Of a DNA stretch of 57,843 bases, positions 20,562-41,608 are shown piece by piece (the stretch's first letter is position 1; every line of letters begins with the position of its first letter). The notes under the pieces were generated by a model. The model did no database searches. It saw only the letters and a program-made list of their open reading frames with translations, and was not told the origin of the DNA. Source of the stretch: an uncultured Fibrobacteraceae bacterium (GTDB taxonomy: Bacteria; Krumholzibacteriota; Krumholzibacteriia; LZORAL124-64-63); assembly GCA_964414055.1 (NCBI GenBank), contig CAYPVD010000002.1, forward strand, positions 1-57,843. Reading direction: 5' to 3'. Both the position numbers and the translations under genes were made by a program.

Positions 20562-21017
20562 TTGGGTAAGCGCAGAAAGGGACGCGAGATCGTTCTGCAA
20601 TCCATGTACGCTTCCATGATCAGCGGCGCGCCGCTGCTGGAAGTCCTGGACGATCAGATCCAACGTCGGGAGTCGGCGCCCGAGACGGCGGCGTTCGCGC
20701 GCCAGCTGGCGGGTAAGGTCAAGGCGCATAGCGCCGATATCGACCGCTGGCTCAAGACCCTGGTCACCAGCAACTGGGATCCGGACCGGCTGGGCTCCCT
20801 GGAAATCGTCATCCTGTCCCTGGGCCTGGCGGAACTGCGCTACAGTCCGGACGTACCTCCGGCCGTGGTCATCAACGAGGCTCTCGAATTGACTCATCGC
20901 TACTGCGAGGACGGCGCCGTGGGCTTCGTGAACGGGGTGCTGGACAAGGCCGCTTCAGAGATCACGGACCGGGACGGGACCGCCCCCTCCGGCAACGCAA
21001 CCGAGGATCAAGCGTGA
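20562..21017 (+). CDS. nusB: transcription antitermination factor NusB
   Basis: TTG start directly after an in-frame stop. N-terminus GKRRKGREIVLQSMYA and the later AELRYSPDVPPAVVINEALELTHRY are NusB-like. Confidence 0.85.
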   Translation: MGKRRKGREIVLQSMYASMISGAPLLEVLDDQIQRRESAPETAAFARQLAGKVKAHSADIDRWLKTLVTSNWDPDRLGSLEIVILSLGLAELRYSPDVPPAVVINEALELTHRYCEDGAVGFVNGVLDKAASEITDRDGTAPSGNATEDQA

Positions 21018-21826
21018 GATCATCCACCCCCGATCACTGGCAGCGCTTCTGGGATCAGGCCGAGGCCATCGACCTGGATGAGGTCTACGACAACGACGGC
21101 AGGCTCGTCCGCGAGATCACACGGCTGTACGACCTGGAGTCCATGGGGGATCTGAGCGGCGTCCGCATCCTGGAGGTGGGAGCCGGCAGCGGGCGCGACG
21201 CCGTGGCCCTGGCCCGGGCCGGGGCGGAGGTCGTCACCATCGACTACGTACGCGGCTCCCTGGATCTGACGGCCAGAGAGGCCGCTGCAGCCGACGTGAC
21301 CGTCTTTCCCGTCTGCGGCGACGGCCTGGGCTCCTCTTTTCCCGACGGGACCTTCGACGTGGTCTTCCACCAGGGGCTGCTGGAACATTTCCGCGATCCG
21401 CTGCCCCTGTTGCAGGACAACATCCGCATCCTCAAGCCGGGCGGTTTCCTGGTGGTGGACGTGCCCCAGACCTTCCACTACTACACCCTGGGCAAGCAGG
21501 TCCTCATCGCCCTGAACCGCTGGTTCGCCGGCTGGGAGACCCAGTTCACCGTCGGCCAGCTGGAACGGATCATGGCGGGCCAGGGTTTGGAACTGGTGCG
21601 CAGCTACGGCGACTGGATGGTGCCGGGGCTCTGGTACCGCGCCCTGCGCAAGGTGCTTGTGACCAGGTTGGGCTGGAAACTGCCCATGCATCCGGAGCCC
21701 ATCGGGCCGCTGGCCCGGCTGGGCGAGAAGTGGCGCGACTGGTTCGGCGGCAAGCGATTGTCCCTTTACACCACGCCGACCATCGGGGTCATCGGTCGCA
21801 AGCCCCGGCCGGGGTCCGGCCGTTGA
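21014..21826 (+). CDS. class I SAM-dependent methyltransferase
   Basis: GTGA overlap with nusB. Motif I ILEVGAGSGRDAVALARAG, then VVTIDY, and DVVFHQGLLEHFRDP. Confidence 0.8.
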   Translation: MRSSTPDHWQRFWDQAEAIDLDEVYDNDGRLVREITRLYDLESMGDLSGVRILEVGAGSGRDAVALARAGAEVVTIDYVRGSLDLTAREAAAADVTVFPVCGDGLGSSFPDGTFDVVFHQGLLEHFRDPLPLLQDNIRILKPGGFLVVDVPQTFHYYTLGKQVLIALNRWFAGWETQFTVGQLERIMAGQGLELVRSYGDWMVPGLWYRALRKVLVTRLGWKLPMHPEPIGPLARLGEKWRDWFGGKRLSLYTTPTIGVIGRKPRPGSGR

Positions 21827-21863: not shown

Positions 21864-22976
21864 GTGAACTGGCGGGATATCGAGGACCCCCTGGGGGGCG
21901 GGGCCGAACTGCACCTGCACCACATCCTCAAGGGGGCTGCGGCGGCGGGTTGGGAAGTCGATCTGGTCTGCAGCGGCTATGAGGGTGCGCCGCGCACCGG
22001 GGTCATCGACGGTGTGAACATCCACCGCCGCGGCCACTGGGCCGTGGCCAATTTCGTGCTGCCGCCGGTGGTCCGTAGCATGCTGCGCCGCAGCCGCTAC
22101 GACCTGCTGGTCGAGGACATCAACAAGATCCCCTTCTACACGCCCCTGTACCGCGACGGTGTTCCGCTGGTCGCCGTCGTGCCGCACCTGTTCGGGCGGA
22201 CAGTCTACCGGGAAACCAACCCGGTGACGGCCAGCTATGTGTACGCGGCCGAAAGTCTCATCCGGCATCTGTACCGCGATGTGGATTTCGAGGTCATCAG
22301 CCCCTCGACCCGGGACGACCTCATCGCCCGGGGGCTGGATCCCGAACGCATCCGGACCATCTACTGCGGCATGGATCACGCCCGTTTCACCCTTGATGAT
22401 CCGCCGCCCAGGGAAGATGAGGCGCCCCTGGTGGTCACCTGGAGCCGCCTGCTCCGCTACAAGAGCATCGATGTGGCCCTGCGGGCTTTCGATGTCATCC
22501 ACCGGGAGCTGCCCCGGGCCCGCATGCTGGTCATGGGACGGGGGCCGGACGAAGCCCGTCTGCGCCGCCTGTGCACGAGACTCGGCCTGGACGAGGTGGT
22601 GGAGTTCAGGGGGTTCCAGCCCTGGGACGAACTGGTCAGGACCCTGCACCGCTGTCACGTGTTCCTGAATCCCAGCCCCAAGGAAGGATGGGGGCTGACC
22701 GTGATCGAGGCCAACCAGTGCGGGTTGCCGGTCGTCGCCAGCGATCGCCCTGGCCTGAAGGATTCTGTGCGCGACGGGGAGACCGGACTGCTGGTCCCCT
22801 ACGGCGACCACCGGGCCATGGCCGCGGCCGCCCTGGGTCTGCTGAGGGACCGGGAAACCTGGTCCAGGTTCAGTGAAGCAGCCAGGCGCTGGGCGGCCGG
22901 CTTCAGCTGGCAGCGCTGTGTTGACGAGTCGCTGGCCTATTTCCAGGAGGTCGCCGGCCGGGGTGACGCTTCATGA
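21864..22976 (+). CDS. glycosyltransferase family 4 (GT-B)
   Basis: 370-aa ORF with C-terminal EGWGLTVIEANQCGLPVVASDRPGLKDSVRDGETGLLVP. The true start may be slightly upstream, since LKLLAVNWRD reads through in frame. Confidence 0.8.
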   Translation: MNWRDIEDPLGGGAELHLHHILKGAAAAGWEVDLVCSGYEGAPRTGVIDGVNIHRRGHWAVANFVLPPVVRSMLRRSRYDLLVEDINKIPFYTPLYRDGVPLVAVVPHLFGRTVYRETNPVTASYVYAAESLIRHLYRDVDFEVISPSTRDDLIARGLDPERIRTIYCGMDHARFTLDDPPPREDEAPLVVTWSRLLRYKSIDVALRAFDVIHRELPRARMLVMGRGPDEARLRRLCTRLGLDEVVEFRGFQPWDELVRTLHRCHVFLNPSPKEGWGLTVIEANQCGLPVVASDRPGLKDSVRDGETGLLVPYGDHRAMAAAALGLLRDRETWSRFSEAARRWAAGFSWQRCVDESLAYFQEVAGRGDAS

Positions 22977-24007
22977 CGGGGGAGCGTTCGGCACCCCGGG
23001 GCTCGTCCCTGCGCCCGTTGCTGGTGTTCGCCGGCAAGCTCCTGATCAGTTCGGTGCTGATCTGGTTCGTCCTGTCGCGCCTGTCGTTGACCGAGATCAC
23101 CGCCGCCATGACCCATCCCCGCTGGGGATTGCTGGTGGCCGCCTTCGCGGTCTACGGGATCTCGGCGCTGGGCGGGGCCCTGCAGTGGGCCTGGATCCTG
23201 CGTGCCGGCGGCATCCGGGTCTCGCGGCGACGCATCCTGCGCGTCTATTTCATCGGCCTGTTCTTCAACAACTTCCTGCCTGCGAACATCGGGGGCGACG
23301 CCTGGAAGATCGTCGACCTGGGCGGTCAGGAAGGACGGCGGCTGGGGGTGTTCTGCGCGACCCTGCTGGACCGGCTCATCGGGCTGGGAGCGCTGTCGCT
23401 GGCGGCGGTGCTCGTGCTGCTGGGCACGGCCCTGGGGGGCGTGCCGTTGCCCGGGGTCACCCTGGTGATGATCCCCGTCCTGCTGATCCTGATGCTGGTG
23501 CTGGTGGTGCTGCTTTCCCGCCGTCTGGGCGGGTGGGGTGTGTCCCTGCTGACCCGTGTCGGGTTGGGGCGGCTGGCGGCCCCCCTGGAGCGTGTGACGG
23601 GGGAACTCGGTCTCTACCGGCCCCAGGTCGGTCTGTTGCAGCGCGTATTCCTGTTCAGCATGGGGGTCCAATCCCTGCGCATGGCCACCCATATCCTGGT
23701 GGCTCTGGGGCTTGGATACGTGCTGGACGGATCCCAGATCCTGCAACTGCTGGTGCTGGTCCCGGTGCTGGCGGTGAGTCTGACCCTGCCGGTGACCATC
23801 AACGGCATCGGCCTGCGGGAATCCGTCTCGGCGAGTCTGCTGACCTGGTCGGGCCTGGCGGGACCCCAGGCGGTGGCCATGGAAGTGGCCGCCTACCTGG
23901 TGCAGGTCTTCTTCAGCCTCAGCGGCGGGATCCTGCTGCTGACCCGCCGGGGAGGGACCGGAACTTCCGGGGCTGCCGACGGTTCCGAATCGGTCGATGT
24001 TTTGTGA
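22973..24007 (+). CDS. UPF0104 / lysylphosphatidylglycerol-synthase-TM-like flippase-like membrane protein
   Basis: ATGA overlap. Polytopic: LLISSVLIWFVLSRL, then RVYFIGLFFNNFLPANIGGDAWK, typical of this family. Confidence 0.65.
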   Translation: MTGERSAPRGSSLRPLLVFAGKLLISSVLIWFVLSRLSLTEITAAMTHPRWGLLVAAFAVYGISALGGALQWAWILRAGGIRVSRRRILRVYFIGLFFNNFLPANIGGDAWKIVDLGGQEGRRLGVFCATLLDRLIGLGALSLAAVLVLLGTALGGVPLPGVTLVMIPVLLILMLVLVVLLSRRLGGWGVSLLTRVGLGRLAAPLERVTGELGLYRPQVGLLQRVFLFSMGVQSLRMATHILVALGLGYVLDGSQILQLLVLVPVLAVSLTLPVTINGIGLRESVSASLLTWSGLAGPQAVAMEVAAYLVQVFFSLSGGILLLTRRGGTGTSGAADGSESVDVL

Positions 24008-24118
24008 CGGTCCGGTTGGCTGGTTGTTGCCGGTGCGGCCGTGTGTTAGGTTCTGCGGGCCCGTTTTCGCGTGGTCGCCGCGCGTCATGGTGGATTCCAG
24101 CTGTGCGAAGGTGATGTC

Positions 24119-26878
24119 TTGACGAAATCCGTATTATCCCGTCCCCAGTTCCTGGTCGCCGTCGCTGTTTTCCTGGTGGCCCTGGGTGTCTACTCCTCCA
24201 CCATGGGACCCACGATCAACTTCTGGGATTGTGGTGAATTCGTGACCACAAGCCACATCGTGGGCATTCCCCATCAGCCGGGAACCCCCCTGTACGTCCT
24301 GGTGGGGCGGGTCTTCGATATCCTGTTGGGACAGGCCGACATCACCCGCCCCAGCTACGAGACGGCCCGCGCCCTGAACTTCATGTCGGCATTCTTCAGC
24401 GCCCTGGCCGTGGCCTTCATCTACCTGCTGATCTGGGAACTGGCCCGGAGGTCAGACCCCGACGCCGGCTGGCTGGCCCATGCGGGCGGTATCGTCGGCG
24501 CCTTCTTCCTGGCGTTTTCCGAGACCTTCTGGAACAATGCCATCGAGGCCGAGGTCTACGGGCTGGCGGGATTCATGATGGCCCTGCTCTCCTGGCTGGC
24601 CGTACGCTGGTATGACACCCGTCAGCAGTGGCGCAGCAACAACCTGCTGCTGCTGATCATCTACCTGCTGGGATTGGGGGTGGGGTTCCACCTGGGGACC
24701 CTGCTGGCCTATCCGGGGATATTCCTGCTCGTCCTGCTGGCCAGGCCCAATCGCCTGCCCATCTACGATCTGTTGTTGATGAGTGCCGGGCTGGCCATCT
24801 TCCTGCTCTCGACCGCCAGCGGCAACAACGCCCTCATCATGTTGTTGCTGGGGATCTATGTCCTGCTGGTCATTTTCCGGAGTGTCCAGGGGAGGCATTT
24901 CGTCCTGCTGGGCAGCACCCTGTTCTTCGTGGGGCTGACCGTCCACGCGATGATGATGATCCGCGCCGGGGCCAACCCCGAGCCCATCATCAACCAGACG
25001 GACCCGGACAATTTCCACACCCTGCTGAAGGTCATCCGCCGCGAGCAGTATCCGCCCATGAATCCCCTGGTGCGCAGGGCGCCCCTGGGGTGGCAGTTCG
25101 GCTATTTCTACCACTACCTGCTGGAGCAGTTCTATTTCCTGGGCCCGGGCAAGGGCGCCCTCACGGTGCTGACCACGGTCCTGGGGCCCATCTTCCTGGC
25201 CCTGGTCGGGCTGTTCCAGGGGCTGCGCAGGGTGCGGCTGCTGATCCTGGTGCCCTTGACGGCCTACCTGATCAACGGCGAGATCCTGACCCTGTACCTG
25301 AACTTCACCGACCACGAGGTTCGCGACCGGGACTACTTCTACTTCGCGGCCTTCATGTTCTTCGCGGTGTTCATCGGTCTGGGGGCGAGTTCCCTGTTGC
25401 GCTTCCTGGCCGGTGACGAGGGCGAATCCGCCGCCCAGATCGAGGCCTCGGGCGGCAACTGGATGACCGACATCAAGGCCGTCGCCCCGGGTTCGGGCGT
25501 CAAGGCGGCGGCATTCCTGCTCGTGCTGCTGGCCCTGTTGCCCCTGGCTCCGGGACAGACGAAGTATTTCCAGCACGACCGTTCCCAGAACCGCATCGCC
25601 TACGAGTACGCCTGGAACATCATGGCGGGGCTGGATGAGAACGCCATCGTCTTCACCAACGGCGACAACGACACTTTCCCCATCTGGTACCTGCAGATCG
25701 TGGAGAAATTCAGGACAGACGTCTCGGTGGTGAACCTGTCCCTGGTCAATCTCCCGTGGTACATCAAGCAGAACAAGCATGCGGAAAACGGCGTGGACAT
25801 GAAGCGTTCGGACGCGGAGATCGACGCCCTGCAGCCCCGTCTCTTCGCCGACCCCAAGACGGGGAAACGGACCCTGGTCATGGTCAAGGACTACGTCCTG
25901 CACGACATCATCACCACCAACCGGGCCGGCAAGAACAGGCCGGTGTTCTTCGCGGTGACCATTCCCCGGGAAAACATGGAACGGTACTACAACAACCTGC
26001 GCATGGAGGGCATGGCCTACCGCCTGGTGGATACCAAGGGGCCCGACGGTTTGCCCACCACCGATCCCCAGCGGGTGCTGGAGAACATCCTGGGCGTGTA
26101 TCGGATGGGTTCGCTCATGACCGGCGACACTCCTGAAAGGCAACAGGCCTTTGCCCGGATGACCGGTCTGCCCGTTACCGAGCAGGGCGAGATCGTTCTC
26201 GGACAGCGCGGACGGGATCTGAACGCCGGCCGGCTGAACACGCTGAACCATATGCTGGGCAAGGTCCGCACGGACATCTTCCGCAACAAGAACGCCGTGC
26301 ACCTGCTGGGCAACTACCCGGCCGCGTTGAACCGGGCGGGTTACGAGTTCTACCTGATGGCCGACAAGGTGGCCGAGACCGACAGCGCGGCCTACCGCGA
26401 GAACCTGGCCAAGTCCATCATCGCCTTCGAGGCCAGTCTGGCCATCGAACCTTTCAACGACCAGGCCCTGGATTTCTATCCCCTGCTGCTGGTCCAGGAT
26501 TATCGCGACGACGATGCCAAGGCCTTCCTGAGTTCCCTGTCGGGCAATGTCCCGCCCGAGATGGAGGAGAAGGTCGTCTACACCGCGCTGCGCGGCATGC
26601 TGGGCGGAGGCGCCAGCGATCTGGCGTTGGGGTGGATCCAGGAGCAGATCCAGGCGCATCCGGACCGCAAGTTCTACTATCAGGTCCAGTTCACCATCTA
26701 CCAGGCCATGGGGCAGCGCGACATGGCGCGGGGGGTCATGGAGAACTGGGAACGCCAGAGCGGCGAACGGGATCCGGACATGGTCCAGGCCCTGAAGGAT
26801 ATGCAGCAGGAGGCCCTGCAGCGCGAGCAGCAGCGCATCGAGGATGCGGCGGGACAGCACAACCGAGAGCGGAACTGA
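24119..26878 (+). CDS. DUF2723 / TMEM260-like GT-C fold glycosyltransferase with C-terminal TPR-like region
   Basis: TTG 24119 (GAAGGTG upstream) or GTG 24071. Motifs NFWDCGEFVTTSHIVGIPHQPGTPLY, many TM helices, the periplasmic block TNGDNDTFPIWYLQIVEKFRTDVSVVNLSL, and a helical repeat tail. Confidence 0.7.
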   Translation: MTKSVLSRPQFLVAVAVFLVALGVYSSTMGPTINFWDCGEFVTTSHIVGIPHQPGTPLYVLVGRVFDILLGQADITRPSYETARALNFMSAFFSALAVAFIYLLIWELARRSDPDAGWLAHAGGIVGAFFLAFSETFWNNAIEAEVYGLAGFMMALLSWLAVRWYDTRQQWRSNNLLLLIIYLLGLGVGFHLGTLLAYPGIFLLVLLARPNRLPIYDLLLMSAGLAIFLLSTASGNNALIMLLLGIYVLLVIFRSVQGRHFVLLGSTLFFVGLTVHAMMMIRAGANPEPIINQTDPDNFHTLLKVIRREQYPPMNPLVRRAPLGWQFGYFYHYLLEQFYFLGPGKGALTVLTTVLGPIFLALVGLFQGLRRVRLLILVPLTAYLINGEILTLYLNFTDHEVRDRDYFYFAAFMFFAVFIGLGASSLLRFLAGDEGESAAQIEASGGNWMTDIKAVAPGSGVKAAAFLLVLLALLPLAPGQTKYFQHDRSQNRIAYEYAWNIMAGLDENAIVFTNGDNDTFPIWYLQIVEKFRTDVSVVNLSLVNLPWYIKQNKHAENGVDMKRSDAEIDALQPRLFADPKTGKRTLVMVKDYVLHDIITTNRAGKNRPVFFAVTIPRENMERYYNNLRMEGMAYRLVDTKGPDGLPTTDPQRVLENILGVYRMGSLMTGDTPERQQAFARMTGLPVTEQGEIVLGQRGRDLNAGRLNTLNHMLGKVRTDIFRNKNAVHLLGNYPAALNRAGYEFYLMADKVAETDSAAYRENLAKSIIAFEASLAIEPFNDQALDFYPLLLVQDYRDDDAKAFLSSLSGNVPPEMEEKVVYTALRGMLGGGASDLALGWIQEQIQAHPDRKFYYQVQFTIYQAMGQRDMARGVMENWERQSGERDPDMVQALKDMQQEALQREQQRIEDAAGQHNRERN

Positions 26879-27924
26879 TGAATGAAACCGAAGTGAAGAA
26901 AATGACGGCCGAGCTTCCGGCGGCGGTAAGGGAGATCCTGGCGCCTGGGACGCCTGTGGTCGTCACAGGGTGCGCCGGCTTCATCGGCAGCACCTTGACC
27001 GAGGCCCTGCTGGGTCTGGGGTGCAGGGTCACGGGCGTGGACTGCCTGACAGATTACTACGATCCGCAGCTCAAGCGGGAGAACATGGCCGGCTTCGCAG
27101 GCAACCCCGATTTCACCTTTGTCCAGGACGATCTGCAGACCCTCGACGCCACGGCCCTGCTGCGGGGCAAGAGGGTGTGTTTCCACCTGGCGGCCCAGGC
27201 GGGAGTGCGCGCCAGTTGGGGAGAGTATTTCGCGGAGTACGTCGGGCGCAACGTGATGTCAACCCAGCGTCTGCTGGAAGCCTGTCGGCGGCCGGAAATC
27301 GCCTCTGATCTGGCGCGGTTCGTGTACTCGAGCAGCAGTTCCGTGTACGGCGACCAGGAGGTCCTGCCGGTGACCGAACAGGCCCTTCCCCAGCCGCGGT
27401 CGCCCTACGGCGTGACCAAGATGGCGGCCGAGCACCTTTGCGTCCTGTATTCCATGAACTTCGGCGTGCCCACCAGCAGCCTGCGCTACTTCACCGTCTT
27501 CGGCCCGCGCCAGCGGCCGGACATGGCCTTTCGCAAGTACATCGAGGCGGCCCTGGACGGGCGTACCTTCGAGGTCTACGGCGACGGGTCCCAGACGCGC
27601 GATTTCACCTACGTGGCCGATGCGGTGCGATCGAATCTGCTGGCCGTGGCCTGCGATTCTCCCTGGGAGGTCTTCAATACCGGCGGCGGCAGCCGCGTGG
27701 TCTTCAGCGAGGCCCTGGATATGCTTCAGGAGATCCTGACCTCCCGCGTTCCGGGTCTGAAGGCCAGCATCACCTACGGGGAGACGGCCAAGGGAGACGT
27801 GAAGAACACCTTCGCCGACCGTACCCATGTGGAAGCCGTGATCGGCTACCGGCCCACCATCAGCTTCCGGGAGGGGCTGGTCAGGGAGGCTGAGTGGGCC
27901 ATCGCCAGGAGGACGTCGGATTGA
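26878..27924 (+). CDS. NAD-dependent sugar-nucleotide epimerase (UDP-glucuronate 4-epimerase-like SDR)
   Basis: ATGA overlap. Motifs VVVTGCAGFIGS, DYYDPQLKRENM, SSSSVYG, and YGVTKMAAE (YxxxK). Confidence 0.75.
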   Translation: MNETEVKKMTAELPAAVREILAPGTPVVVTGCAGFIGSTLTEALLGLGCRVTGVDCLTDYYDPQLKRENMAGFAGNPDFTFVQDDLQTLDATALLRGKRVCFHLAAQAGVRASWGEYFAEYVGRNVMSTQRLLEACRRPEIASDLARFVYSSSSSVYGDQEVLPVTEQALPQPRSPYGVTKMAAEHLCVLYSMNFGVPTSSLRYFTVFGPRQRPDMAFRKYIEAALDGRTFEVYGDGSQTRDFTYVADAVRSNLLAVACDSPWEVFNTGGGSRVVFSEALDMLQEILTSRVPGLKASITYGETAKGDVKNTFADRTHVEAVIGYRPTISFREGLVREAEWAIARRTSD

Positions 27925-28874
27925 ACAGCGAACAGACCGGTCGGGATGAGCTGCTGGATCTGGCCATCGTGGTGCCGGCCTTCAACGAGGCCGAATCCCT
28001 GCCCGAACTCGTCCGGCGCATAACCGCCGCGGTCGAACCCCTGGGCCTGTCCCACGGGATCTGGATCATCGACGACGGCAGCAGCGACGGCACCTTCGAG
28101 GTCATCTGCAGCCTGGCGGCCGAGAATCCAGCGGTCCACGGGGTCCGTTTCGGCCGCAACTTCGGCAAGTCAGCCGCCCTGGCCGCCGGCTTCGACGAGG
28201 CCAAAGGCGACATCGTCATCACCATGGATGCCGACCTGCAGGACGATCCGGCCGAGATCCCGTCCCTGATCGCCAAGCTCCAAGAAGGCTGGGACCTGGT
28301 CTCGGGCTGGAAGCAGGACCGCAAGGACAGCTTCATCAAGAACAAGACGAGCCGGATCTTCAACTGGTTCACCAGCAGGATGTGCGGCCTGAAGCTGCAC
28401 GATTTCAACTGCGGCCTGAAGGCCTACCGGCGCCGGGTCACACGGCGGGTGCGCATCTACGGCGAGATGCACCGCTACGTGCCGGCCCTGGCCCATCTGG
28501 AGGGCTTCCGGGTCACCGAAAAGCCCGTGCGCCATTTCGCCCGCAAGTACGGCCGCACCAAGTACGGCCCGGCCCGCTTCATCAACGGTTTCCTGGACCT
28601 GCTGACGGTGTATTTCCTGCACGCCCGCCGCACTTCGCCCCTGCACATGTTCGGACGGCTGGGGCTGCTGTTCCTGACGGTCGGCGGCGGGATCAGCGCC
28701 TACTTCCTCGCCTACTGGCTGCTCGGCCACGGTCTGCACCTGCGGCCCATGCTGCTGCTGGGCCTGGTCCTGATCATCCTCTCCTTCCAGTTCATCAGCC
28801 TGGGCCTGATCGCCGAGCTGGTCGTGGCCGGGCGCCGCCCCGAGCGCGACTACAGGATCGCCGATCGTGTCTGA
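27921..28874 (+). CDS. polyprenyl-phosphate sugar synthase, GT2 (GtrB/ArnC/CsbB-like) with two C-terminal TM helices
   Basis: TTG 27921 with AGGAGG 8 nt upstream (track start 27894 also possible). Motifs VVPAFNEAESL, IIDDGSSDGT, FGRNFGKSAALAAG, TMDADLQDDP, GWKQDRKDS. C-terminal helices LLFLTVGGGISAYFLAYWL and LLLGLVLIILSFQFISLGLI. Confidence 0.8.
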   Translation: MNSEQTGRDELLDLAIVVPAFNEAESLPELVRRITAAVEPLGLSHGIWIIDDGSSDGTFEVICSLAAENPAVHGVRFGRNFGKSAALAAGFDEAKGDIVITMDADLQDDPAEIPSLIAKLQEGWDLVSGWKQDRKDSFIKNKTSRIFNWFTSRMCGLKLHDFNCGLKAYRRRVTRRVRIYGEMHRYVPALAHLEGFRVTEKPVRHFARKYGRTKYGPARFINGFLDLLTVYFLHARRTSPLHMFGRLGLLFLTVGGGISAYFLAYWLLGHGLHLRPMLLLGLVLIILSFQFISLGLIAELVVAGRRPERDYRIADRV

Positions 28875-29799
28875 GGGTACCGGGCGCAGGGAAGAGGGCG
28901 GTCTGCCGCCGCTGGCTGTGGTGGTCATAAACTGGAACGGCCGCGAGGTCCTGGCCGATTGCCTGGGGTCCTTGGCCCAGGAGAGCTATCCCGCGCTGCG
29001 CCTGATCATGGTGGACAACGCCTCGGCAGATGATTCGGTGGCCTGGACCAGGCGGCACCATCCCGAGGTCGAGATCCTCGTCTCGGACCGGAACCTGCGC
29101 TGGGCCGGCGGCTGCAACCTGGCCCTCAGGGCCCTCCAGCGGGAGGGTTTCGCGGGCTGGATCCTGTTGCTGAACAACGACACGGTGGTGCCCGAGGGCA
29201 GTCTGCGGCGGCTGGTCGAGGCGGTTGCCTGCGTACCCGAGGCCTGGGCCGGAACACCGCGGATATGTTACGCCTCCGACCCCGGGCGCATCTGGTACGA
29301 CGGCGGGATCATCGGCCGCTGGTGCGGCTGGGTGCGGCACAAGGGGATCCGGATGGTGGCGGGAGATCTGCCCCTGGATTCCCGGTTCGTGGACTACGGG
29401 ACCGGTTGCGCCCTGCTGGTGGGGCAGAAGGCCCTGGCGCAGGTGGGGCTGTTCGACGAGGACTTTCATTTCTACGGGGAAGACGCCGACTATTCCCTGC
29501 GGATCCTGGCGGCAGGTGGCAGGATTCTCCATGTGCCGCGGTCCATCGTGCTGCACAAGGTCAGCATGTCCGTGGGCGAGTCCTCGCCGCTGAAGGTCTG
29601 GTTGCGCAACCGCAGCCACTGGCGCCTGCTGCGCAAGCACTGGCGCTGGTACCGGTGGCCCCTGCTGGCGGTCTGCCAACTGGTGTACCTGTCCGGGCAC
29701 ACCGTCTTTCACCTGTGGCACGGGCGCATGGGCACGGCAGCGGCGGTCTGGCTCGGCATTATCGACGAGATCCGGGACCGGCCCTATCCCCGCCGGTAG
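28867..29799 (+). CDS. glycosyltransferase family 2 (soluble, rhamnosyltransferase-like)
   Basis: Overlaps the upstream stop. Motifs VVVINWNGREVLADCLGSL, MVDNASADDS, GCALLVGQKAL, FFYGEDADYSLR-like block (FHFYGEDADYSLR). Confidence 0.75.
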   Translation: MSEGTGRREEGGLPPLAVVVINWNGREVLADCLGSLAQESYPALRLIMVDNASADDSVAWTRRHHPEVEILVSDRNLRWAGGCNLALRALQREGFAGWILLLNNDTVVPEGSLRRLVEAVACVPEAWAGTPRICYASDPGRIWYDGGIIGRWCGWVRHKGIRMVAGDLPLDSRFVDYGTGCALLVGQKALAQVGLFDEDFHFYGEDADYSLRILAAGGRILHVPRSIVLHKVSMSVGESSPLKVWLRNRSHWRLLRKHWRWYRWPLLAVCQLVYLSGHTVFHLWHGRMGTAAAVWLGIIDEIRDRPYPRR

Positions 29800-29969
29800 G
29801 CGGGCGGCCCCGGGATTCGGCCGGGTCTTTCCGGGTGGCGGCATTGGACAGCCGCGGTCCGTAATGATATGATTCGACATGGTTTGTAACGCAACCTGAC
29901 GGGCCTGGTTCAGTGCCCTCGCCTTCCCCGCAGGGGATTTTCCCGGGAGGCCCCGTGGCCAAGCAACGT

Positions 29970-32540
29970 ATGCGACATCCGGCCTCGACCAGCACCGAGA
30001 CTGGCGGCAGTGGTCTGTCCGCGGCCGGCCCGGCCCGTTGGTTGGCCTGCGACCAAGGCTGGGGCTACTGGCTGAAGATGACGGTCCTGATCCTGGTGGT
30101 GCTGGCGATCATCTATCCCGAGGCCGTGTTCCGGGGCGAGGTCTTCCGGAGCAGCGACGCCGGCAATTCCCTCATGTTCTCGCAGATCGGCGACCAGGCC
30201 CTGTCCCGTGGCGAGTATCCCCTGTGGAATCCCTACCTTTTCGCGGGCATGCCGAGCTTCGGCTCCCTGGCCTACGTGAAGTACCTGTACCCGCCCGGGA
30301 TTCTGTTCAACTTCCTGCAGAACAGCCTGGGCTTTCCTCCCTTGACTTGGATGCTGGGGCATCTGCTGTTCGGCGGTCTGGGGATGGTCTGGCTGTTGCG
30401 CCGCTGGAAGCTGGGCCAGGGCGAGGTTCTTTTGGGCGTGGTGATCTGGCTGCTGTTTCCCAAGGTGGTGGCCTGGGGCGTGCACGGCCACGGCTCCAAG
30501 CTGGGGGCGGCCATGTATCTGCCCTGGCTCGTCGGTTGGACCTTGCGCATCCTGGACGGCGGCCGCCTGCGGGCTATCGCCGTGACCGGTCTGCTGGTGG
30601 GGCTGCAACTGCTTCGCGGTCACATCCAGATCGCCTATTACAGCCTCGGCCTCATGGCCTGGTTGGCCGTGTGGGCCGTGTTGTGGCCCATGGAAACCCC
30701 TTGGCGGGGGGTGTCCCCGGGCGTGCGTCTGCAGCGGGCCGGAAGACTGGTGGCGGGGTTGGCCCTGGGCTTCCTCATCGCGGGGATCCTCCTGGTGCCG
30801 GTCCAGCGCTACGCCAAGGTCTCCATCCGGGGCCAGGACACCTCCGGCGGGGGGGGGGTGGGCCTGGCCTACGCCACCGGATGGTCCCTGTCGCCCCAGG
30901 AAATGCCCACCCTGGTGCTGCCTTCGGATGCCGGTTTCGGCCAGGCGACCTACATGGGACGCATGCCGTTCACCGATTACCCCAACTACGTCGGGTGGCT
31001 CGTCCTGTTGCTGGCGGGGCTGGCCTGGGGCCGGGGCCGCCGGCGCTGGGCCGTGGTCTGGGGCGTGTTGGCTTTGCTGGCCATCCTGGTTTCCTGGGGC
31101 AACTACGGTTTCGGGTTCTACGAACTGCTGTACCGCCATCTGCCCTTCTTCAACAAGTTCCGGGTTCCTTCGATGATCCTGATCCTGGTGTCCTTCGCCC
31201 TGGCGGTGACCGCTCCGCGCGGGCTGGCCGCATGGCGCGAAAGGCGTGCCGTCGGGCCCCGGTGGTTGCCCGTGGCGGTCTGCGGGATCCTGGGTCTGGT
31301 GCTGCTGCTGGCCGGGGGACTGTCCCTGGCTCACCAGGGATATGTGGACCATCTGCAGAAGCTCGCGGGGCTGGAACAGAAACCCACGGCCCCGGTCCTT
31401 CTGGAAGCGGCCTGGGACATGCAGAAGAACGATCTGGTCAGGATCGGATTCTTCCTGTTGCTGGCCGCCGGGGCGTTCCAACTGGCCCGTTGGAAAGAGG
31501 GGTTCGCCCGCTACGGTCTGCCCTGGGTGCTGTGCCTGCTGGTGGTGGCGGATCTGGGTCGGGTGGATGCACGGATCACCCATCCGGAGGATTTCCTGCT
31601 GCGGGTAGGGCAGGGGCAGGGAGGACAGGCGGCCCTGATGCCGGCGGTGCCCCTGGTGACGGACCCACCATCCCGGGATGTCGCCAGCGGACCCCACGCG
31701 GATGTCATCAAGCGCGAACTGGGGCACGACAGGTTGTTCCCCCTGGGGCAGGACGGGAGCCGCAACACCTGGATGGCCGACGGCATCAGGTCCCTGGGCG
31801 GATACCACCCGGCCAAGCTGGCGGCCTTCGAGACCATTCGCAAGCGGTTGTACGGACAGTTGCCCGCCGGGCGCATCGCCGCCTGGCTGGCTGCCAGGCT
31901 CGTGAGCTTCGACCGGCCATTCAATGAGCAGGAGTTGTCGCTGCTGGCCGAACAGGGCCTGGATCTTGTGCCGCGGCCTTTGACCAGGAGTGCGCCTTAC
32001 CTGTACAGGATGCGGTCCTATCTTCCGCGGGCCCGCTTGGTGTCGCGCTGGGAACCCGTGGCGGCGTTGCCGGGCGGGGACGACCTGGGCTCCTTCCTGG
32101 ATGGGATCCAGGCCGGTATCGTCGATCCGGGCGCCGTAGTGCACCTGGCCGGGGATCTGCGCGGGGTACCGGATGTCGCCGCGGATACGGAAGGAGAGTC
32201 CGCTCTGCCGGCCGTGAAGTTCCTCGTCGACGGCATGAACGAGGTCGTGCTGCAGACCTCGACCCCCGTGGCCGCGGTGCTGGTCCTGGCGGACATGAAC
32301 GCCCCGGGCTGGCGGGTGCTGGTCGATGGCCGACCCAGGCCGCTGCTGACGGCGGATCTCGTGCTGCGGGCCGTGGCGATCGAACCGGGGGAGCACGAGG
32401 TACGCTTCGTCTACGGGGATCCGGCCGTGAAATTGGGATTGATCCTGACCGTCAGTGGCGTGATCATCGTCCTGTTCCTGCTGCTGGGGGATTTCTTCCT
32501 GATGCGGCGTGCAAGAGCTACCGGAGGTCAAGAGGCATGA
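29970..32540 (+). CDS. YfhO-like polytopic membrane glycosyltransferase (GT-C type)
   Basis: ATG 29970 (alternatives GTG 29913, ATG 30078). YfhO-like N-terminus FRSSDAGNSLMFSQIGDQALSRGEYPLWNPYLFAGMPSFGS, more than 10 TM helices, a large C-terminal non-membrane domain and a terminal TM helix. Confidence 0.65.
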   Translation: MRHPASTSTETGGSGLSAAGPARWLACDQGWGYWLKMTVLILVVLAIIYPEAVFRGEVFRSSDAGNSLMFSQIGDQALSRGEYPLWNPYLFAGMPSFGSLAYVKYLYPPGILFNFLQNSLGFPPLTWMLGHLLFGGLGMVWLLRRWKLGQGEVLLGVVIWLLFPKVVAWGVHGHGSKLGAAMYLPWLVGWTLRILDGGRLRAIAVTGLLVGLQLLRGHIQIAYYSLGLMAWLAVWAVLWPMETPWRGVSPGVRLQRAGRLVAGLALGFLIAGILLVPVQRYAKVSIRGQDTSGGGGVGLAYATGWSLSPQEMPTLVLPSDAGFGQATYMGRMPFTDYPNYVGWLVLLLAGLAWGRGRRRWAVVWGVLALLAILVSWGNYGFGFYELLYRHLPFFNKFRVPSMILILVSFALAVTAPRGLAAWRERRAVGPRWLPVAVCGILGLVLLLAGGLSLAHQGYVDHLQKLAGLEQKPTAPVLLEAAWDMQKNDLVRIGFFLLLAAGAFQLARWKEGFARYGLPWVLCLLVVADLGRVDARITHPEDFLLRVGQGQGGQAALMPAVPLVTDPPSRDVASGPHADVIKRELGHDRLFPLGQDGSRNTWMADGIRSLGGYHPAKLAAFETIRKRLYGQLPAGRIAAWLAARLVSFDRPFNEQELSLLAEQGLDLVPRPLTRSAPYLYRMRSYLPRARLVSRWEPVAALPGGDDLGSFLDGIQAGIVDPGAVVHLAGDLRGVPDVAADTEGESALPAVKFLVDGMNEVVLQTSTPVAAVLVLADMNAPGWRVLVDGRPRPLLTADLVLRAVAIEPGEHEVRFVYGDPAVKLGLILTVSGVIIVLFLLLGDFFLMRRARATGGQEA
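30849..30858 (+). repeat. G10 homopolymer inside the YfhO-like gene
   Basis: Read directly (tcc ggc ggg ggg ggg gtg = SGGGGV). It is the longest homopolymer I found in the window. Confidence 0.9.
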
Positions 32541-33292
32541 ACGAGAACCGGGGCGGTTCCGGCGTCACTCCGCCTTTGAACCTGCGCAAGGCCGTGGTGG
32601 TGGTGCCCACCTACAACGAGGCCGAGAACGTAGGCAGATTGCTGCCCCTGATCCTTGAACAGGATCCGCGGCTGTCCGTGCTCGTGGTCGACGACAGCTC
32701 GCCCGACGGGACCGCCGATGTGGTCAAGGGTCTGCCGGAGTTCGGCGACCGCATCCTCATCCTCGAGCGCCCGCTCAAGGAAGGGCTGGGCGCGGCCTAC
32801 ATCGCGGGTTTCCAGTGGATCCTGGCCAACACCGATTTCGAGGCCGTGTTCGAGATGGATGCGGATTTCAGCCACGATCCTGCGGCCCTGCCGCTTTTCC
32901 TCGAACACATCGAGACCCACGACTTGGTCCTGGGCAGTCGTTATCTGCACGGCATCACGGTGGTGAACTGGCCGTTGCGGCGCCTGGTCCTGAGCGTGGG
33001 CGCCAACATGTACGCGCGGTGGGTGACGGGTCTGCCCATCAAGGACAGCACCGGCGGGTTCAAGTGTTTCCGGCGGACGACTCTCGAACAGCTGCCCCTG
33101 GACAGGATCAAGAGCGACGGCTATTCCTTCCAGATCGAGATGAACTACCACTGCTGGAAGCGCGGCCTGACCATCAAGGAAATTCCCATCATGTTCGTAG
33201 ACCGGCAGGTCGGAGTCTCGAAGATGTCCAAACGGATAATCCTGGAGGCCATGTTCATGGTCTGGACCCTGCGTCTGCGGCGCATACCTTGA
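32537..33292 (+). CDS. polyprenol-phosphate mannose synthase-like GT2 (Dpm1/Ppm1-like)
   Basis: ATGA overlap. Motifs VVVPTYNEAENV, VVDDSSPDGT, KEGLGAAYIAGF, FEMDADFSHDP, VLGSRY, DSTGGFKCF. Confidence 0.8.
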   Translation: MNENRGGSGVTPPLNLRKAVVVVPTYNEAENVGRLLPLILEQDPRLSVLVVDDSSPDGTADVVKGLPEFGDRILILERPLKEGLGAAYIAGFQWILANTDFEAVFEMDADFSHDPAALPLFLEHIETHDLVLGSRYLHGITVVNWPLRRLVLSVGANMYARWVTGLPIKDSTGGFKCFRRTTLEQLPLDRIKSDGYSFQIEMNYHCWKRGLTIKEIPIMFVDRQVGVSKMSKRIILEAMFMVWTLRLRRIP

Positions 33293-33303: not shown

Positions 33304-35439
33304 GTGTCCGCCGTTGCAGACAGGGACAGGGACGGGATCCTGGACCTAGGGATCGTCATCGTCCACTTCAACAGCAGCGCCGACCTCCAGCGTTGCCTGG
33401 AATCGATCTTCGCCAACCCGCCTTCCTGTTCCTTCCGGGTCACCGTGGTGGACAACGCCTCCACGGATCCGGGACTGGCCGCGGTCAGGGAACGGTTCAC
33501 CGGTGTGGATTGGCTTCTCAACAGTCAGAACACCGGATATGCACGTGGTTGCAATCAGGGCATGGCGGCCCATCCGGCGGCGTGGTACCTGATCCTCAAC
33601 CCCGACATCGTCGTGCAGCCGGGGGCCATCGACGGTCTGCTCCATTGCGGCCGTTCCCATCCCCGCGCCGGGATCATCGGGCCCCAGCTGCTGAACGAGG
33701 ACGGTTCCATCCAGGAGTCCTGCCGCCGTTTCTACACCCTGGGCACCCTCTTGCTCAGGCGCACCTTCCTCGGCAGGCTTTTTCCCCGCAGCAGCATCGT
33801 TCAGCGTCACCTGATGCGCGATTTCGATCACAACACGACCCGGCCCGTGGACTGGGTGCTGGGCGGCTGCATGCTGGTCAGCGGCCAGGCCCTCGAGCGG
33901 ACCGGTCCCATGGACGAACGCTTCTTTCTCTATTTCGAGGACGTTGACTGGTGCTACCGGATGTGGCAGGCCGGTTGCGAGGTGCTCTACACGCCGGACG
34001 CGCGTTTTCAGCACCGGCATCGGCGTGCCAGCGCGCAGAGGACCTTCAACCGCTCCTTCTGGCTGCATCTGGGCAGCATGATCTCCTTCTACGAGAAATG
34101 GGGTCTGCTGGTCTGGCTGGTCAAACGCTGGCGGGAACCCATGTTGATGCTGCTCTTCTGGCTCCTGGACATGACCTTCGTGGGCGGAGGCTTCGTGCTG
34201 GCGTATGGGCTGCGCAAGTTGGCCGGCCGGTTCTTTCCCCAGGAGCTCTTCGCCTTCAGCGAGTATACGCCCCTGTTGATCTACACCCTGCTGCTGTCCA
34301 CGGTGGTCTTCCTGGGCAGCGGACGGTATGCTCCCGGCAGCCTGCGCGGGGGATCGCAGCCGGTGCGCGATCTGCAGCGTGCCGGCACGATTTTCATGCT
34401 GCTGCTTGCCAGCACGTACCTGGGACACATGGAGGTTATCAGCCGGGCCGTCCTGTTGATCTATCTGCCCCTGCTGGTGACCGTCGTCCCGGGGACCCGT
34501 CGGCTGCTGAACCTGGTGCTGCACAGGCTGGAACGGGGACGTCTGGCCCTGGAGAGGACCCTGCTGGTGGGAACCCACGGACGGATCGCGGCCTGGCTGA
34601 AAGATGCGGGAGATCCTGTGGCCGAGGGGGTGGACCTGGTGGGCTATGTCTGTCCCCGCGAAGGCACTGGCGTGCTGCCACCCCTGGGCGGTGGTAGAAT
34701 CCCCTGGCTGGGCGAGCCTGCCGATCTCGACGCCGTGGTCCGCCGCTACCGCGCCGGGCAGGTGGTCATCTGGCCCGAGGACGAGGCCGGGCCGGGGACC
34801 CTGCGCATGTGGGGCAAGTTGCGCCGACTGGGCGTGCGCCTGCGGTGGCAGACGGGACATTCATGGTTGCTGGCGGCCGGTGCCCGCGTCGAGGTGTTCG
34901 GAGGCGGGCTCGGGGCGGTGCGGGGAGTGAACCAGGCCTCGTTGTTGAAGGGGGCGGCACGGCGTCTGGTGGATCTGGTCGGGGGTGTGCTGCTGATGAT
35001 CATCTGCGGTCCCTTCAGACTGTGGGACCGGATCAGGGGTCGTTCCAGGCACCATTTCCGGTCGGAATCGTTGCGTTTGCGCGACCCCTGGGGGTTCGAT
35101 CCGGAACTCCGGGTGCTGGTTTCCGACGAGGATGCCGTATTGCCCCTGGCATGGCAGTGGGATCTTGGGTGCGCCCTCTTGAGGGGCAGGATCACCCTGG
35201 TGGGACCCTGGTGCCTAGCCGACGGACTCCAGTGGCGGGAGCCTGATCCCGAGGGTATGCTGGTTTTCTGGGGCAGCGATCCTGTACCATGCGCCCTGTG
35301 GGCCTCCGGTCGGGCCCGGGGCTGGGCCGGTTTCCGCTATTTCTGGTCACATCCGGGTGGCTTGTCCCGGTGGCATGTTCCTGCTGCCGACGGCGACCAG
35401 CCCGGTGCGGCCGTTGCTGAACATAACGAGGTGGAATGA
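33304..35439 (+). CDS. fusion protein: GT2 glycosyltransferase, polytopic/CoA-binding-like region, and divergent bacterial sugar transferase (PGT) domain
   Basis: Track ORF 32815..35439 trimmed to GTG 33304. N-terminus IVIVHFNSSADLQRCL, VVDNASTD, GGCMLVSGQAL, FLYFEDVDWCYR. Middle TM block and ERTLLVGTHGRIA, as in WbaP-type enzymes. C-terminus ARRLVDLVGGVLLMIICGPF...WDLGCALLRGRITLVGPW resembles but deviates from KR..D...LDELPQL.NVL.G.MSLVGPRP. Confidence 0.6.
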   Translation: MSAVADRDRDGILDLGIVIVHFNSSADLQRCLESIFANPPSCSFRVTVVDNASTDPGLAAVRERFTGVDWLLNSQNTGYARGCNQGMAAHPAAWYLILNPDIVVQPGAIDGLLHCGRSHPRAGIIGPQLLNEDGSIQESCRRFYTLGTLLLRRTFLGRLFPRSSIVQRHLMRDFDHNTTRPVDWVLGGCMLVSGQALERTGPMDERFFLYFEDVDWCYRMWQAGCEVLYTPDARFQHRHRRASAQRTFNRSFWLHLGSMISFYEKWGLLVWLVKRWREPMLMLLFWLLDMTFVGGGFVLAYGLRKLAGRFFPQELFAFSEYTPLLIYTLLLSTVVFLGSGRYAPGSLRGGSQPVRDLQRAGTIFMLLLASTYLGHMEVISRAVLLIYLPLLVTVVPGTRRLLNLVLHRLERGRLALERTLLVGTHGRIAAWLKDAGDPVAEGVDLVGYVCPREGTGVLPPLGGGRIPWLGEPADLDAVVRRYRAGQVVIWPEDEAGPGTLRMWGKLRRLGVRLRWQTGHSWLLAAGARVEVFGGGLGAVRGVNQASLLKGAARRLVDLVGGVLLMIICGPFRLWDRIRGRSRHHFRSESLRLRDPWGFDPELRVLVSDEDAVLPLAWQWDLGCALLRGRITLVGPWCLADGLQWREPDPEGMLVFWGSDPVPCALWASGRARGWAGFRYFWSHPGGLSRWHVPAADGDQPGAAVAEHNEVE

Positions 35440-40520: not shown

Positions 40521-41608
40521 TGGGCACCGTGGGCGGACACGAACCCTACACCATCGAGCAGTCGGTCTCGTTGCCGGCGGACTGGGACGACCTGGTCCTG
40601 GCAGATCCGGCGGCCGAGTACACGCACTGCGCACACTGGCTGGAATCGGTCCGCCGTTGCTACGACGGTGCGAAGCTGCTGGTGCTCACGGTGCGGCAGG
40701 AGGGAGAACTGATCGGCGGTCTCGCCGCCGTTGACAGGAGGGTCGGCCGTCTCCGGCGGTTGGACAGCAGCCTCGACGGCACCACAGGCGGCCCTCTTTT
40801 GCACCGCCAACTGGACCAGATGTCGCGGCGCAGGTTGTTTCTGGAGCTGGTTCGCCGGTTCCGGGCGTTGCGCCGAGGTCCCTTGACCGCTCTGGGCATG
40901 GCCCTGAACGCCTCGGGAGAGGAAGCCTACGGGCCGCTGCTGGCGGGGGAGGGGGATTGGCTGCGCCATGACGCCCCGACAGCCGTGGTCTCCCTGTCAG
41001 GCGGTATCGAGGACGTGGAGAAGAACAAGCTGGTGATGAACAAGCGCAACGAACGAAACCGGGGCCTGCGGCGCGGAGCGGAAGTGTTCGCCACCAAGGA
41101 TCCGGCCTGGCTGGAGCGGTACTATCGACTGTATCTGCAGGCGGCCCGCCACTGGAAAGTGGAGCCGGTGCCGGAATCCTTCCTGCACAGCCTGCTCGAC
41201 GGCCCCGGGGATCGTGACGGCGCCGGCGATGTCTTCTTCACCTGCGTGAAGATCGGGGACCGGGTCATCGGCGGCCACCTGAATCTGCACCTGGGCGACA
41301 GGGTGTTCGCCTGGAACGGTGTGACGGATCCCGCCTACGCCCGCTCCCATTTTCCGGCCACGCTCTGTTTCTGGGGCGACATGGTGGAGGCCTGCCGACG
41401 CGGGGCGCTGTGGCTGGATTTTGGCGCCAGCGGTGTCGCGGCCTCCCTGTCGACCTTCAAGAAATATTTTGGTGCGCAGATGGAGCAGCGCGGCTACTAC
41501 ACCAGTGAATCGGCGGCCCTCAAACTGGCGAGAAAACTGCGCCGGGGGCCGGCGGGATCAGGCCGCCACCGGGTCCGCTGGCACGATACCCTGCGGAGGC
41601 GCTCGTGA
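40517..41608 (+). CDS. FemAB/CelD-like GNAT-fold acyltransferase
   Basis: Overlaps the upstream stop. Pattern AEYTHCAHWLESVRRCYDGAKLLVLTVRQEGELIGGLA, NKRNERNRGLRRG, GGHLNLHLGDRVFAWNGVTDP resembles the FemAB-like / BioF2-like acetyltransferase family. Confidence 0.55.
   Translation: MMGTVGGHEPYTIEQSVSLPADWDDLVLADPAAEYTHCAHWLESVRRCYDGAKLLVLTVRQEGELIGGLAAVDRRVGRLRRLDSSLDGTTGGPLLHRQLDQMSRRRLFLELVRRFRALRRGPLTALGMALNASGEEAYGPLLAGEGDWLRHDAPTAVVSLSGGIEDVEKNKLVMNKRNERNRGLRRGAEVFATKDPAWLERYYRLYLQAARHWKVEPVPESFLHSLLDGPGDRDGAGDVFFTCVKIGDRVIGGHLNLHLGDRVFAWNGVTDPAYARSHFPATLCFWGDMVEACRRGALWLDFGASGVAASLSTFKKYFGAQMEQRGYYTSESAALKLARKLRRGPAGSGRHRVRWHDTLRRRS

Follow-up and report, generated by a model that had tools for sequence, protein, structure and literature searches.

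A DUF2723/TMEM260-type glycosyltransferase and its candidate donor synthase in an envelope-glycan locus of an uncultured Krumholzibacteriota bacterium

What does the bacterial relative of a human protein O-mannosyltransferase do, and from which lipid-linked sugar would it draw? This question is raised by a gene at 24119..26878 (+ strand) in the first 57,843 nucleotides of contig CAYPVD010000002.1 (the window, as we call this whole stretch), which comes from an uncultured Fibrobacteraceae bacterium (GCA_964414055.1; GTDB phylum Krumholzibacteriota) with a genome assembly of 2.9 Mb in 306 contigs that is 90.6% complete. A preliminary description, made from the sequence of the window, had presented the gene product as a DUF2723/TMEM260-like enzyme of the glycosyltransferase C (GT-C) class with a tail of tetratricopeptide repeats (TPRs) and, given a Dpm1-like synthase encoded downstream, as a candidate bacterial enzyme of the protein O-mannosylation type. 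Our analysis points to an intact, near-universal bacterial TMEM260-type enzyme that is accompanied in the window by a probable donor synthase and a candidate flippase. With moderate confidence, we propose that this enzyme is an inverting GT-C transferase of the inner membrane that faces the periplasm and moves mannose from polyprenyl phosphate to Ser/Thr residues of exported proteins. The choice of mannose as the sugar and of protein Ser/Thr as the acceptor is argued from homology.

A bacterial relative of TMEM260 and its distribution

The + strand frame is open to position 26878 from either a GTG at 24071 (935 aa) or a TTG at 24119 (919 aa). The shorter form matches the lengths of its homologues, which are mostly 917-919 aa, and a Shine-Dalgarno-like GAAGGTGA lies 7 nt 5' of the TTG. 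The three motifs that had first drawn attention to the protein (FWDCGEF, GIPHQPGTPLY, and TNGDNDTFPIWYLQ) are all present in the translation, and the DUF2723 assignment was borne out by a strong hidden Markov model match to PF11028 (TMEM260-like; E = 3.3e-46, 157.8 bits against a gathering score of 24.2 bits, aa 37-209), the single Pfam family found on the protein. In a whole-genome scan with PF11028, the protein scored 163 bits and was the one copy in the genome. The domain PF28495 (TMEM260_2) is recorded on close homologues, and the Pfam scan gave no match on the protein to a PMT/PMT_2 membrane core (PF13231/PF02366-type, ArnT-like). We take the TMEM260/DUF2723 family to be CAZy GT117. Judged by its sequence, the gene is intact and its bacterial product is related to TMEM260, a human protein O-mannosyltransferase; it appears to be a housekeeping form, found in bacteria, of an enzyme type that is already known.

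An AlphaFold2 model of the protein, built with a 95-sequence alignment and numbered on the 919-aa form, reached a mean pLDDT of 94.6 and a pTM of 0.92. In this model, the membrane part is a GT-C fold, which is followed by a Rossmann-like domain and then by the TPR domain, and we infer a membrane orientation that places the latter two in the periplasm. The features of the gene, with transmembrane (TM) helices as predicted, are as follows:

24119..26878, + strand: DUF2723/TMEM260-type (GT117-like) GT-C glycosyltransferase, 919 aa (Pfam, homologues, AlphaFold2 model, TMEM260 alignment)
24119..25549, + strand: predicted membrane GT-C module, aa 1-477, 13 predicted TM helices (AlphaFold2 secondary structure, hydropathy)
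24227-24229, + strand: D37 in the first periplasmic loop (TMEM260 alignment)
24272-24274, + strand: H52 in the first periplasmic loop (TMEM260 alignment)
25328-25330, + strand: R404 of EVRDR404DY, in the loop after TM11 that also holds N395 (TMEM260 profile alignment)
25556..26278, + strand: predicted periplasmic Rossmann-like alpha/beta domain, aa ~480-720 (AlphaFold2 model, alignment with TMEM260 residues 406-486)
25664-25666, + strand: D516 of T513-N-G-D516-N-D-T519 in the Rossmann-like domain (TMEM260 alignment)
26288..26875, + strand: predicted C-terminal TPR domain, aa 724-918, ~10 paired helices (family profile, Foldseek, conservation)

A Foldseek comparison with the PDB returned GT-C enzymes as all of the top matches (probability 1.00): Pmt4 (9i5k), AglB (3waj), ArnT (5f15/5ezm), STT3 (8age), Pmt1/2 (6p25), DPY19 (7zlh), EmbB, and ALG9/12. 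The GT-C fold expected from the sequence was thereby recovered in the model, with Pmt4 and Pmt1/2 among its solved matches. The modelled strands of the Rossmann-like domain span residues 510-513, 536-539, 574-577, 584-587, 609-612, and 627-636. As for the tail, Foldseek matched it to the TPRs of PilF, CTPR, and SPY, and the family profile matched both a consensus TPR (E = 1e-65) and the OGT TPR (~1e-24) over profile positions ~700-850; a single-sequence Pfam scan gave no TPR model at E < 0.01, and NCBIfam gave only a weak PrsT-TPR match. The earlier call of a TPR tail of about 300 aa therefore holds for its nature, by family profile and model, and not for its length, which is ~195 aa. Similarly, the TNGDNDTFPIWYLQ block that had been taken as typical of DUF2723 is present, and its place is now within the Rossmann-like domain, where it holds the counterpart of residue D441 of TMEM260.

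TMEM260 is the sole solved structure that is related by sequence to the protein (chains 9RQL/M/N; phmmer E = 6e-16, family profile E = 2e-40). The structure set used with Foldseek excludes TMEM260 coordinates, and the comparison of the two proteins is one at the level of sequence. In TMEM260, the sugar-recognition motif of the first loop holds D52 and H67, R264/Y267 in the donor-loading loop bind phosphate and sugar, R355 in TMH10 contacts the sugar, and the catalytic base is D441 in the RGD motif of the Rossmann-like domain, which grips the peptide together with the TPRs; the D52A, H67A, R264A, Y267A, and D441A variants are inactive, and R355A has ~20% of the activity left (10.64898/2026.03.17.711096, a 2026 cryo-EM preprint).

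Between them, the phmmer and family-profile alignments pair D37 with D52, H52 with H67, R404 with R355, and NGD516 with RGD441. These four residues are invariant in 95 homologues from ~15 phylum-level lineages, and so are E40, which also lies in the first periplasmic loop, and R308-x-x-Y311 in the periplasmic loop of aa 284-322. Thus, the acidic residue of the WDCGEF loop, whose conservation had been proposed as a check, is conserved, and D37 aligns with an essential residue of the human enzyme. In addition, the TNGDNDT block is unchanged in 95/95 homologues, and the TPR domain has two conserved asparagines at its base (N725 and N732) and a variable distal part.

TMEM260 (PF11028; 9RQL/9RQM/9RQN) is a protein O-mannosyltransferase of the endoplasmic reticulum that modifies the IPT domains of plexins, cMET, and RON. 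The bacterial protein has in common with it the sequence family, the order of GT-C membrane core, Rossmann-like domain, and TPR, and the fading of conservation towards the distal TPR. It differs in being longer (919 versus 707 aa), with 13 predicted versus 11 TM helices and a longer TPR domain, and in its setting, which is the bacterial inner membrane with a polyprenyl (undecaprenyl-type) carrier instead of a dolichyl one. The IPT-domain sequon of TMEM260 has no counterpart known for the bacterial protein.

The family is large. When 1.84 billion cluster representatives were searched exhaustively with HMMER, 12,039 relatives came up at E <= 1e-3, 851 of them at E <= 1e-30, with homology that mostly covers aa ~10-670, and close homologues with a source name were mostly labelled Candidatus Krumholzibacteriota. 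In the organism's own phylum, 118 of 121 genomes carried PF11028, including 102 of the 104 high-quality ones. The domain was also present in all 61 genomes of a Bacteroidota sample, taken from the phylum to which 'Bacteroidetes bacterium KatS3mg041', the source of one of our DUF2723 loci, belongs. Among 14 control genomes, it was found in Bacteroides thetaiotaomicron only. A motif scan (TNGDNDTF plus EVR[DE]RDYF) of species-representative genomes gave matches across the Fibrobacteres-Chlorobi-Bacteroidetes (FCB) group, in lineages that include Eisenbacteria, Zixibacteria, KSB1, Calditrichota, Chlorobi, Ignavibacteria, Bacteroidota, Cloacimonadota, Gemmatimonadota, Marinimicrobia, Latescibacterota, Fibrobacterota, and WOR-3.

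The DUF2723 tree roughly tracks these lineages, with local tandem duplications. Tandem duplicates were seen at three loci in KSB1/Cytophagia-labelled contigs and, within the organism's own phylum, in one family (f4; G092:C7:400060-403298, G036:C1:496749-500139, and G024:C3:50007-53283). Such duplicates suggest paralogues whose acceptor or donor specificity has diverged.

The lipid-sugar donor

The genes that bear on the donor lie directly downstream:

26878..27924, + strand: UDP-glucuronate 4-epimerase-like short-chain dehydrogenase/reductase (SDR) (PDB sequence matches)
27894..28874, + strand: ArnC/GtrB-type polyprenyl-phosphate glycosyltransferase of family GT2 with two C-terminal TM helices (PDB sequence matches)
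28867-29799, + strand: soluble GT2
29913..32540, + strand: YfhO-like GT-C, 875 aa (weak PF09586 match, stronger in relatives)
32537..33292, + strand: Dpm1/DPMS-like GT2, 251 aa, without a TM helix (PDB sequence matches)

The Dpm1-like gene lies where the preliminary description had placed it, 5.66 kb downstream of the DUF2723 gene and on the same strand. Its product has as best solved relative the Pyrococcus Dol-P-Man synthase 5MLZ (E = 1.6e-24, aa 17-244), compared with 1.5e-7 for ArnC. The orthologues are named 'polyprenol monophosphomannose synthase' by their sources, and the NCBIfam equivalog matches are all under their cut-offs. The protein is most likely the synthase of a polyprenyl-phosphate-mannose donor. 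It is also unusually conserved, with 78-93% identity among the 120 best-scoring homologues (Krumholzibacteria-type where labelled), versus ~65% for DUF2723.

We counted neighbours within 8 kb at 80 DUF2723 loci and scored the presence of ArnC-type, YfhO-like, and GT4 genes in a sample of 31 Bacteroidota genomes. A Dpm1-like orthologue (44-59% identity) occurs, like DUF2723 itself, in 61/61 genomes of the larger Bacteroidota sample, in a single copy in 60 of them, and it lies <=8 kb from DUF2723 in 12 of the 80 loci, which come from several phyla. The co-occurrence of the two genes that had been proposed as a check is therefore observed, and nine loci with both genes have no YfhO-like gene nearby.

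On the proposed pathway, the cytoplasmic Dpm1-like GT2 would load mannose from GDP-mannose onto polyprenyl phosphate, and the lipid-linked sugar would then be flipped across the membrane, a step for which the flippase-like product of the gene just upstream of DUF2723 may be responsible. The 13-helix module would bind the polyprenyl-phosphate-sugar through D37, H52, R404, and probably R308/Y311, while the C-terminal TPR and Rossmann-like domains would grip part of an exported protein in extended form. D516 would then deprotonate the Ser/Thr hydroxyl, which would attack the anomeric carbon with inversion.

Several observations weigh against this proposal. With regard to the enzyme itself, both HMMER alignments (phmmer and family profile) left the R264/Y267 region of TMEM260 unaligned, and we infer from equal spacing alone that R308-x-x-Y311 is its counterpart. 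The acceptor is likewise deduced from architecture alone, and a TPR domain with a catalytic aspartate would fit a non-protein acceptor too. As the preliminary description had stated, the bacterial members appear uncharacterised: we found no published function for any of them in the literature searched, and Larsen et al. 2023 (PMC10214176) speak only of 'distant homologs in bacteria'.

With regard to the donor, three genomes of the organism's own phylum that have no PF11028 match keep the Dpm1-like gene; gaps in these metagenome-assembled genomes are possible, yet as they stand they show no co-loss and lend no support to a strict coupling. The Dpm1-like synthase could also feed other GT-C enzymes, at least four of which, of the PMT_2/ArnT type, are encoded on other contigs of the genome (C1:51528-52010, C68:8915-9280, C15:22937-23356, and C123:2065-2535), which implies that several periplasmic routes of lipid-linked glycosylation coexist in this organism. 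The DUF2723 and Dpm1-like genes are unlinked in most Bacteroidota genomes, and an orthologue of any polyprenyl-phosphate-sugar synthase lies <=8 kb away in only 19 of the 80 loci. Finally, the genes that are translationally coupled to DUF2723 in its own lineage encode the epimerase-like SDR and the ArnC-type GT2.

The stop codon of DUF2723 shares bases with the start codon of the SDR (TGATG at 26876-26880), and for this reason the ArnC-type GT2 and SDR were first taken as the donor path of DUF2723. On that account, which we now consider unlikely, an enzyme of the same class with a periplasmic protein acceptor would use polyprenyl-phosphate galacturonate made by the SDR and the ArnC-type GT2, and the Dpm1-like synthase would serve the YfhO-like GT-C, whose stop indeed overlaps the Dpm1-like start (ATGA at 32537-32540). 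The order DUF2723-SDR-ArnC-type GT2 recurs in three Krumholzibacteria-type contigs (L002-L004) and also at loci that carry the labels Eisenbacteria and Latescibacterota. The best solved relatives of the SDR are PDB 6ZL6 and related entries (E 1e-70), ahead of MoeE5 (6e-60); 6ZL6 is, we presume, the Bacillus cereus UDP-glucuronic acid (UDP-GlcA) 4-epimerase, and the residue numbering of the SDR fits it. The SDR retains the UDP-GlcA 4-epimerase signature (S/T126, S127, S128, Y149, K153, T178, and R185), including the Arg185 that holds the carboxylate of galacturonic acid in that enzyme (PMC12338863). The genome encodes a UDP-glucose 6-dehydrogenase (E 7e-137 to 4A7P), and the ArnC-type GT2 matches ArnC structures at E ~2e-57 and GtrB at 1e-32. 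Together, the SDR and the ArnC-type GT2 should, from these matches, make a polyprenyl-phosphate uronic acid.

The wider genome comparison associates this pair with a different enzyme. An ArnC-type orthologue (44-56% identity) and a YfhO-like GT-C were each found in 30 of the 31 Bacteroidota genomes; the two genes are adjacent in at least five genomes and lie <=6 kb apart in two more. The one genome without an ArnC-type gene (G148) is also the one without a YfhO-like gene, and it retains both DUF2723 and the Dpm1-like gene. In addition, the SDR/ArnC-type pair adjoins DUF2723 in only 12 of the 80 loci, and the sugar-contacting residues in common with the mannose-using TMEM260 are invariant across the family. 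A check of ten genomes that keep DUF2723-SDR-GT2 found a YfhO-like gene in 10/10 and so did not discriminate between the pairings.

Given that the ArnC-type gene tracks the YfhO-like gene, adjoins it in at least five genomes, and is jointly absent with it from G148, we dropped the ArnC-type pair as the leading donor path and retained it as a rival. YfhO enzymes are known to be partnered by GT2s of the GtrB/CsbB type, which have C-terminal TM helices. The ArnC-type GT2 is thus the probable partner of the YfhO-like GT-C, which is the second periplasm-facing transferase of the cluster, and the SDR probably belongs to this neighbouring YfhO module and not to the donor path of DUF2723; the three proteins look like a separate module for the transfer of a lipid-linked uronic acid. 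The pairing of DUF2723 with the Dpm1-like synthase, as originally suggested, is therefore supported both by co-occurrence and by the attachment of the ArnC-type gene to the YfhO-like one.

The acceptor and the upstream neighbours

Three genes directly upstream of DUF2723 bear on the question of what it modifies:

21014..21826, + strand: class I S-adenosylmethionine-dependent methyltransferase (Pfam)
21864..22976, + strand: GT4 glycosyltransferase (Pfam)
22973..24007, + strand: LPG_synthase_TM / TIGR00374 flippase-like membrane protein (Pfam E 2.2e-31, NCBIfam flippase-like domain)

The LPG_synthase_TM protein is a candidate flippase for the lipid-linked donor, and an orthologue of it lies <=8 kb from DUF2723 in 15 of the 80 loci. 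A GT4 orthologue (>=200 bits) stands beside DUF2723 in 25 of these loci and a methyltransferase orthologue in 19. The gene order is DUF2723-methyltransferase-GT4 in loci labelled Bacteroidetes, Chitinophagaceae, and Ignavibacteriales, whereas here it is methyltransferase-GT4-(flippase-like)-DUF2723. The methyltransferase and GT4 genes accompany DUF2723 across phyla in varied orders, as we noted at five loci.

This linkage raises an alternative acceptor. The GT4 might build a membrane glycolipid or lipoglycan, the MprF-like flippase-like protein might flip it, and DUF2723 might extend it in the periplasm with polyprenyl-phosphate mannose. Such a scheme would resemble the synthesis of phosphatidylinositol mannosides and lipomannan in mycobacteria, in which the GT4 enzymes PimA/PimB, Ppm1, and the GT-C enzymes PimE/MptA take part. 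It gains from the fact that GT4, flippase-like, and DUF2723 genes remain neighbours in several phyla despite changes of order, and from the GT4 orthologues of the 31-genome sample, which occur in four genomes and in 4/4 cases lie <=5 kb from DUF2723. LPG_synthase_TM domains are, moreover, of a lipid-flippase type, and glycolipid synthases are among the weak NCBIfam matches of the GT4.

We nevertheless regard a glycolipid acceptor as quite improbable. DUF2723 occurs without the GT4 in 27 of the 31 Bacteroidota genomes, and 55 of the 80 loci have no GT4 nearby, so the GT4 product cannot be the general acceptor; the GT4 is a lineage-restricted accessory, tightly linked but dispensable. Its family matches are otherwise generic GT4 ones, with BshA and MshA scoring higher than the glycolipid synthases, and the Rossmann-like and TPR lobe is the very part that grips the peptide in TMEM260.

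A third possibility, to which we give the least weight, is that the enzyme decorates another envelope polymer, such as lipopolysaccharide (LPS) core or lipid A, capsule or exopolysaccharide, or peptidoglycan, acting like ArnT, Rgt, or GtrC enzymes as one step of the surface-glycan locus at 21.0-44.0 kb. The gene does lie inside a same-strand glycan block of ~23 kb, and ArnT is among its Foldseek matches. Against this, the protein has no PMT_2/ArnT Pfam match, a protein-specific enzyme has a homologous acceptor lobe, and the family is near-universal and, outside its own lineage, stands mostly alone or with other partners, unlike variable surface-glycan genes.

Within the locus, the propeller protein at 35436..37877 had been put forward as a candidate acceptor. 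We rejected it as a dedicated acceptor: it is absent from L004, which is otherwise syntenic with the window, and it is not a conserved neighbour in other phyla.

Relation to known glycosylation systems and the rest of the locus

The proposed enzyme invites comparison with the PMT/POMT family (GT39; fungi, animals, Actinobacteria), whose members are likewise GT-C enzymes that use Dpm1-type polyprenyl- or dolichyl-phosphate mannose on Ser/Thr of translocating proteins. An acidic residue conserved within the first loop is common to both, and Pmt4 and Pmt1/2 are among the top Foldseek matches. Unlike PMT/POMT, the DUF2723 protein has an acceptor lobe made of Rossmann-like and TPR domains instead of MIR domains, has no PMT/PMT_2 Pfam match, and would carry its general base in a soluble domain, as TMEM260 does. 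The cadherin O-mannosyltransferases TMTC1-4 (GT105) also combine a GT-C core with lumenal TPRs for protein clients, but they belong to another sequence family with a PMT_2-type core and have no base-carrying Rossmann-like domain. ArnC/ArnT, RgtE/RgtA-D, and CsbB/YfhO follow the same three-component logic of a GT2 synthase, a flippase, and a periplasmic GT-C, and one such pair, made up of the ArnC-type GT2 and the YfhO-like GT-C, is encoded in the window beside DUF2723. The GT-C enzymes of these systems differ from DUF2723 in that they lack a Rossmann-like/TPR acceptor lobe and modify lipid A/LPS core or teichoic acids.

Eukaryotes and Actinobacteria are known to O-mannosylate proteins from lipid-phosphate mannose by means of the PMT family. 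To our knowledge, the TMEM260 branch has been characterised in humans only (2023-2026). TMEM260 is the gene of SHDRA syndrome, and Bacteroidota are a dominant gut phylum. If our proposal is true, this animal disease gene descends from, or has a common origin with, a bacterial housekeeping enzyme.

[quoted passage not shown] Its sequon is D-S/T-A/I/L/V/M/T. Our literature search for an identified Bacteroidota O-mannosyltransferase or oligosaccharyltransferase found none. The current model for this phylum is the en-bloc transfer of a core glycan linked to undecaprenyl (pyro)phosphate by an oligosaccharyltransferase, in contrast to the monosaccharide transfer proposed here.

DUF2723 and the Dpm1-like GT2 are both present throughout the phylum that owns this system (61/61 genomes each), which makes the family an obvious candidate for the missing transferase. 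We consider DUF2723 a credible candidate for the initiating enzyme of Bacteroidota O-glycosylation; its universal presence is a matter of consistency, not proof. Much more tentatively, and with more doubt than belief, we suggest that DUF2723 and the Dpm1-like synthase supply the missing initiating step of a housekeeping system of general protein O-glycosylation in Bacteroidota and their FCB relatives, the organism's own phylum included. The first mannose would be placed on periplasmic Ser/Thr in a eukaryote-like manner and not via an oligosaccharyltransferase, and the ArnC-type/YfhO-like pair would act on this glycan, or on a related one, in a second periplasmic step.

The genes from nusB (20562) to mraZ (44394) are all on the + strand, with many stop/start overlaps. 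Between the rib-nusB genes and the mraZ/dcw cluster lie ~23 kb of same-strand envelope-glycan genes (21014-43954), which comprise GT2 and GT4 enzymes, a Wzx-like flippase, amino-sugar enzymes, and a sulfotransferase. Downstream of the Dpm1-like gene, this block contains:

~33304-35439, + strand: GT2 fused to a phosphoglycosyltransferase-like region
35436-37877, + strand: PorZ-like propeller protein (NCBIfam T9SS PorZ E 1.6e-9, far under its cut-off)
37877-43954, + strand: amino-sugar enzymes, Wzx-like protein, sulfotransferase

L002-L004 preserve the arrangement of genes from ribD through the GT2 fusion, and their DUF2723 proteins share 55-65% identity with the query. More broadly, the order rib-nusB-methyltransferase-GT4-flippase-like-DUF2723 is conserved in relatives. 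A 413-aa + strand open reading frame at 22873-24114 was discarded as a gene: it has no family match and overlaps, in a different frame, the real gene at 22973-24007, the LPG_synthase_TM gene, which is supported by third-position GC and Pfam.

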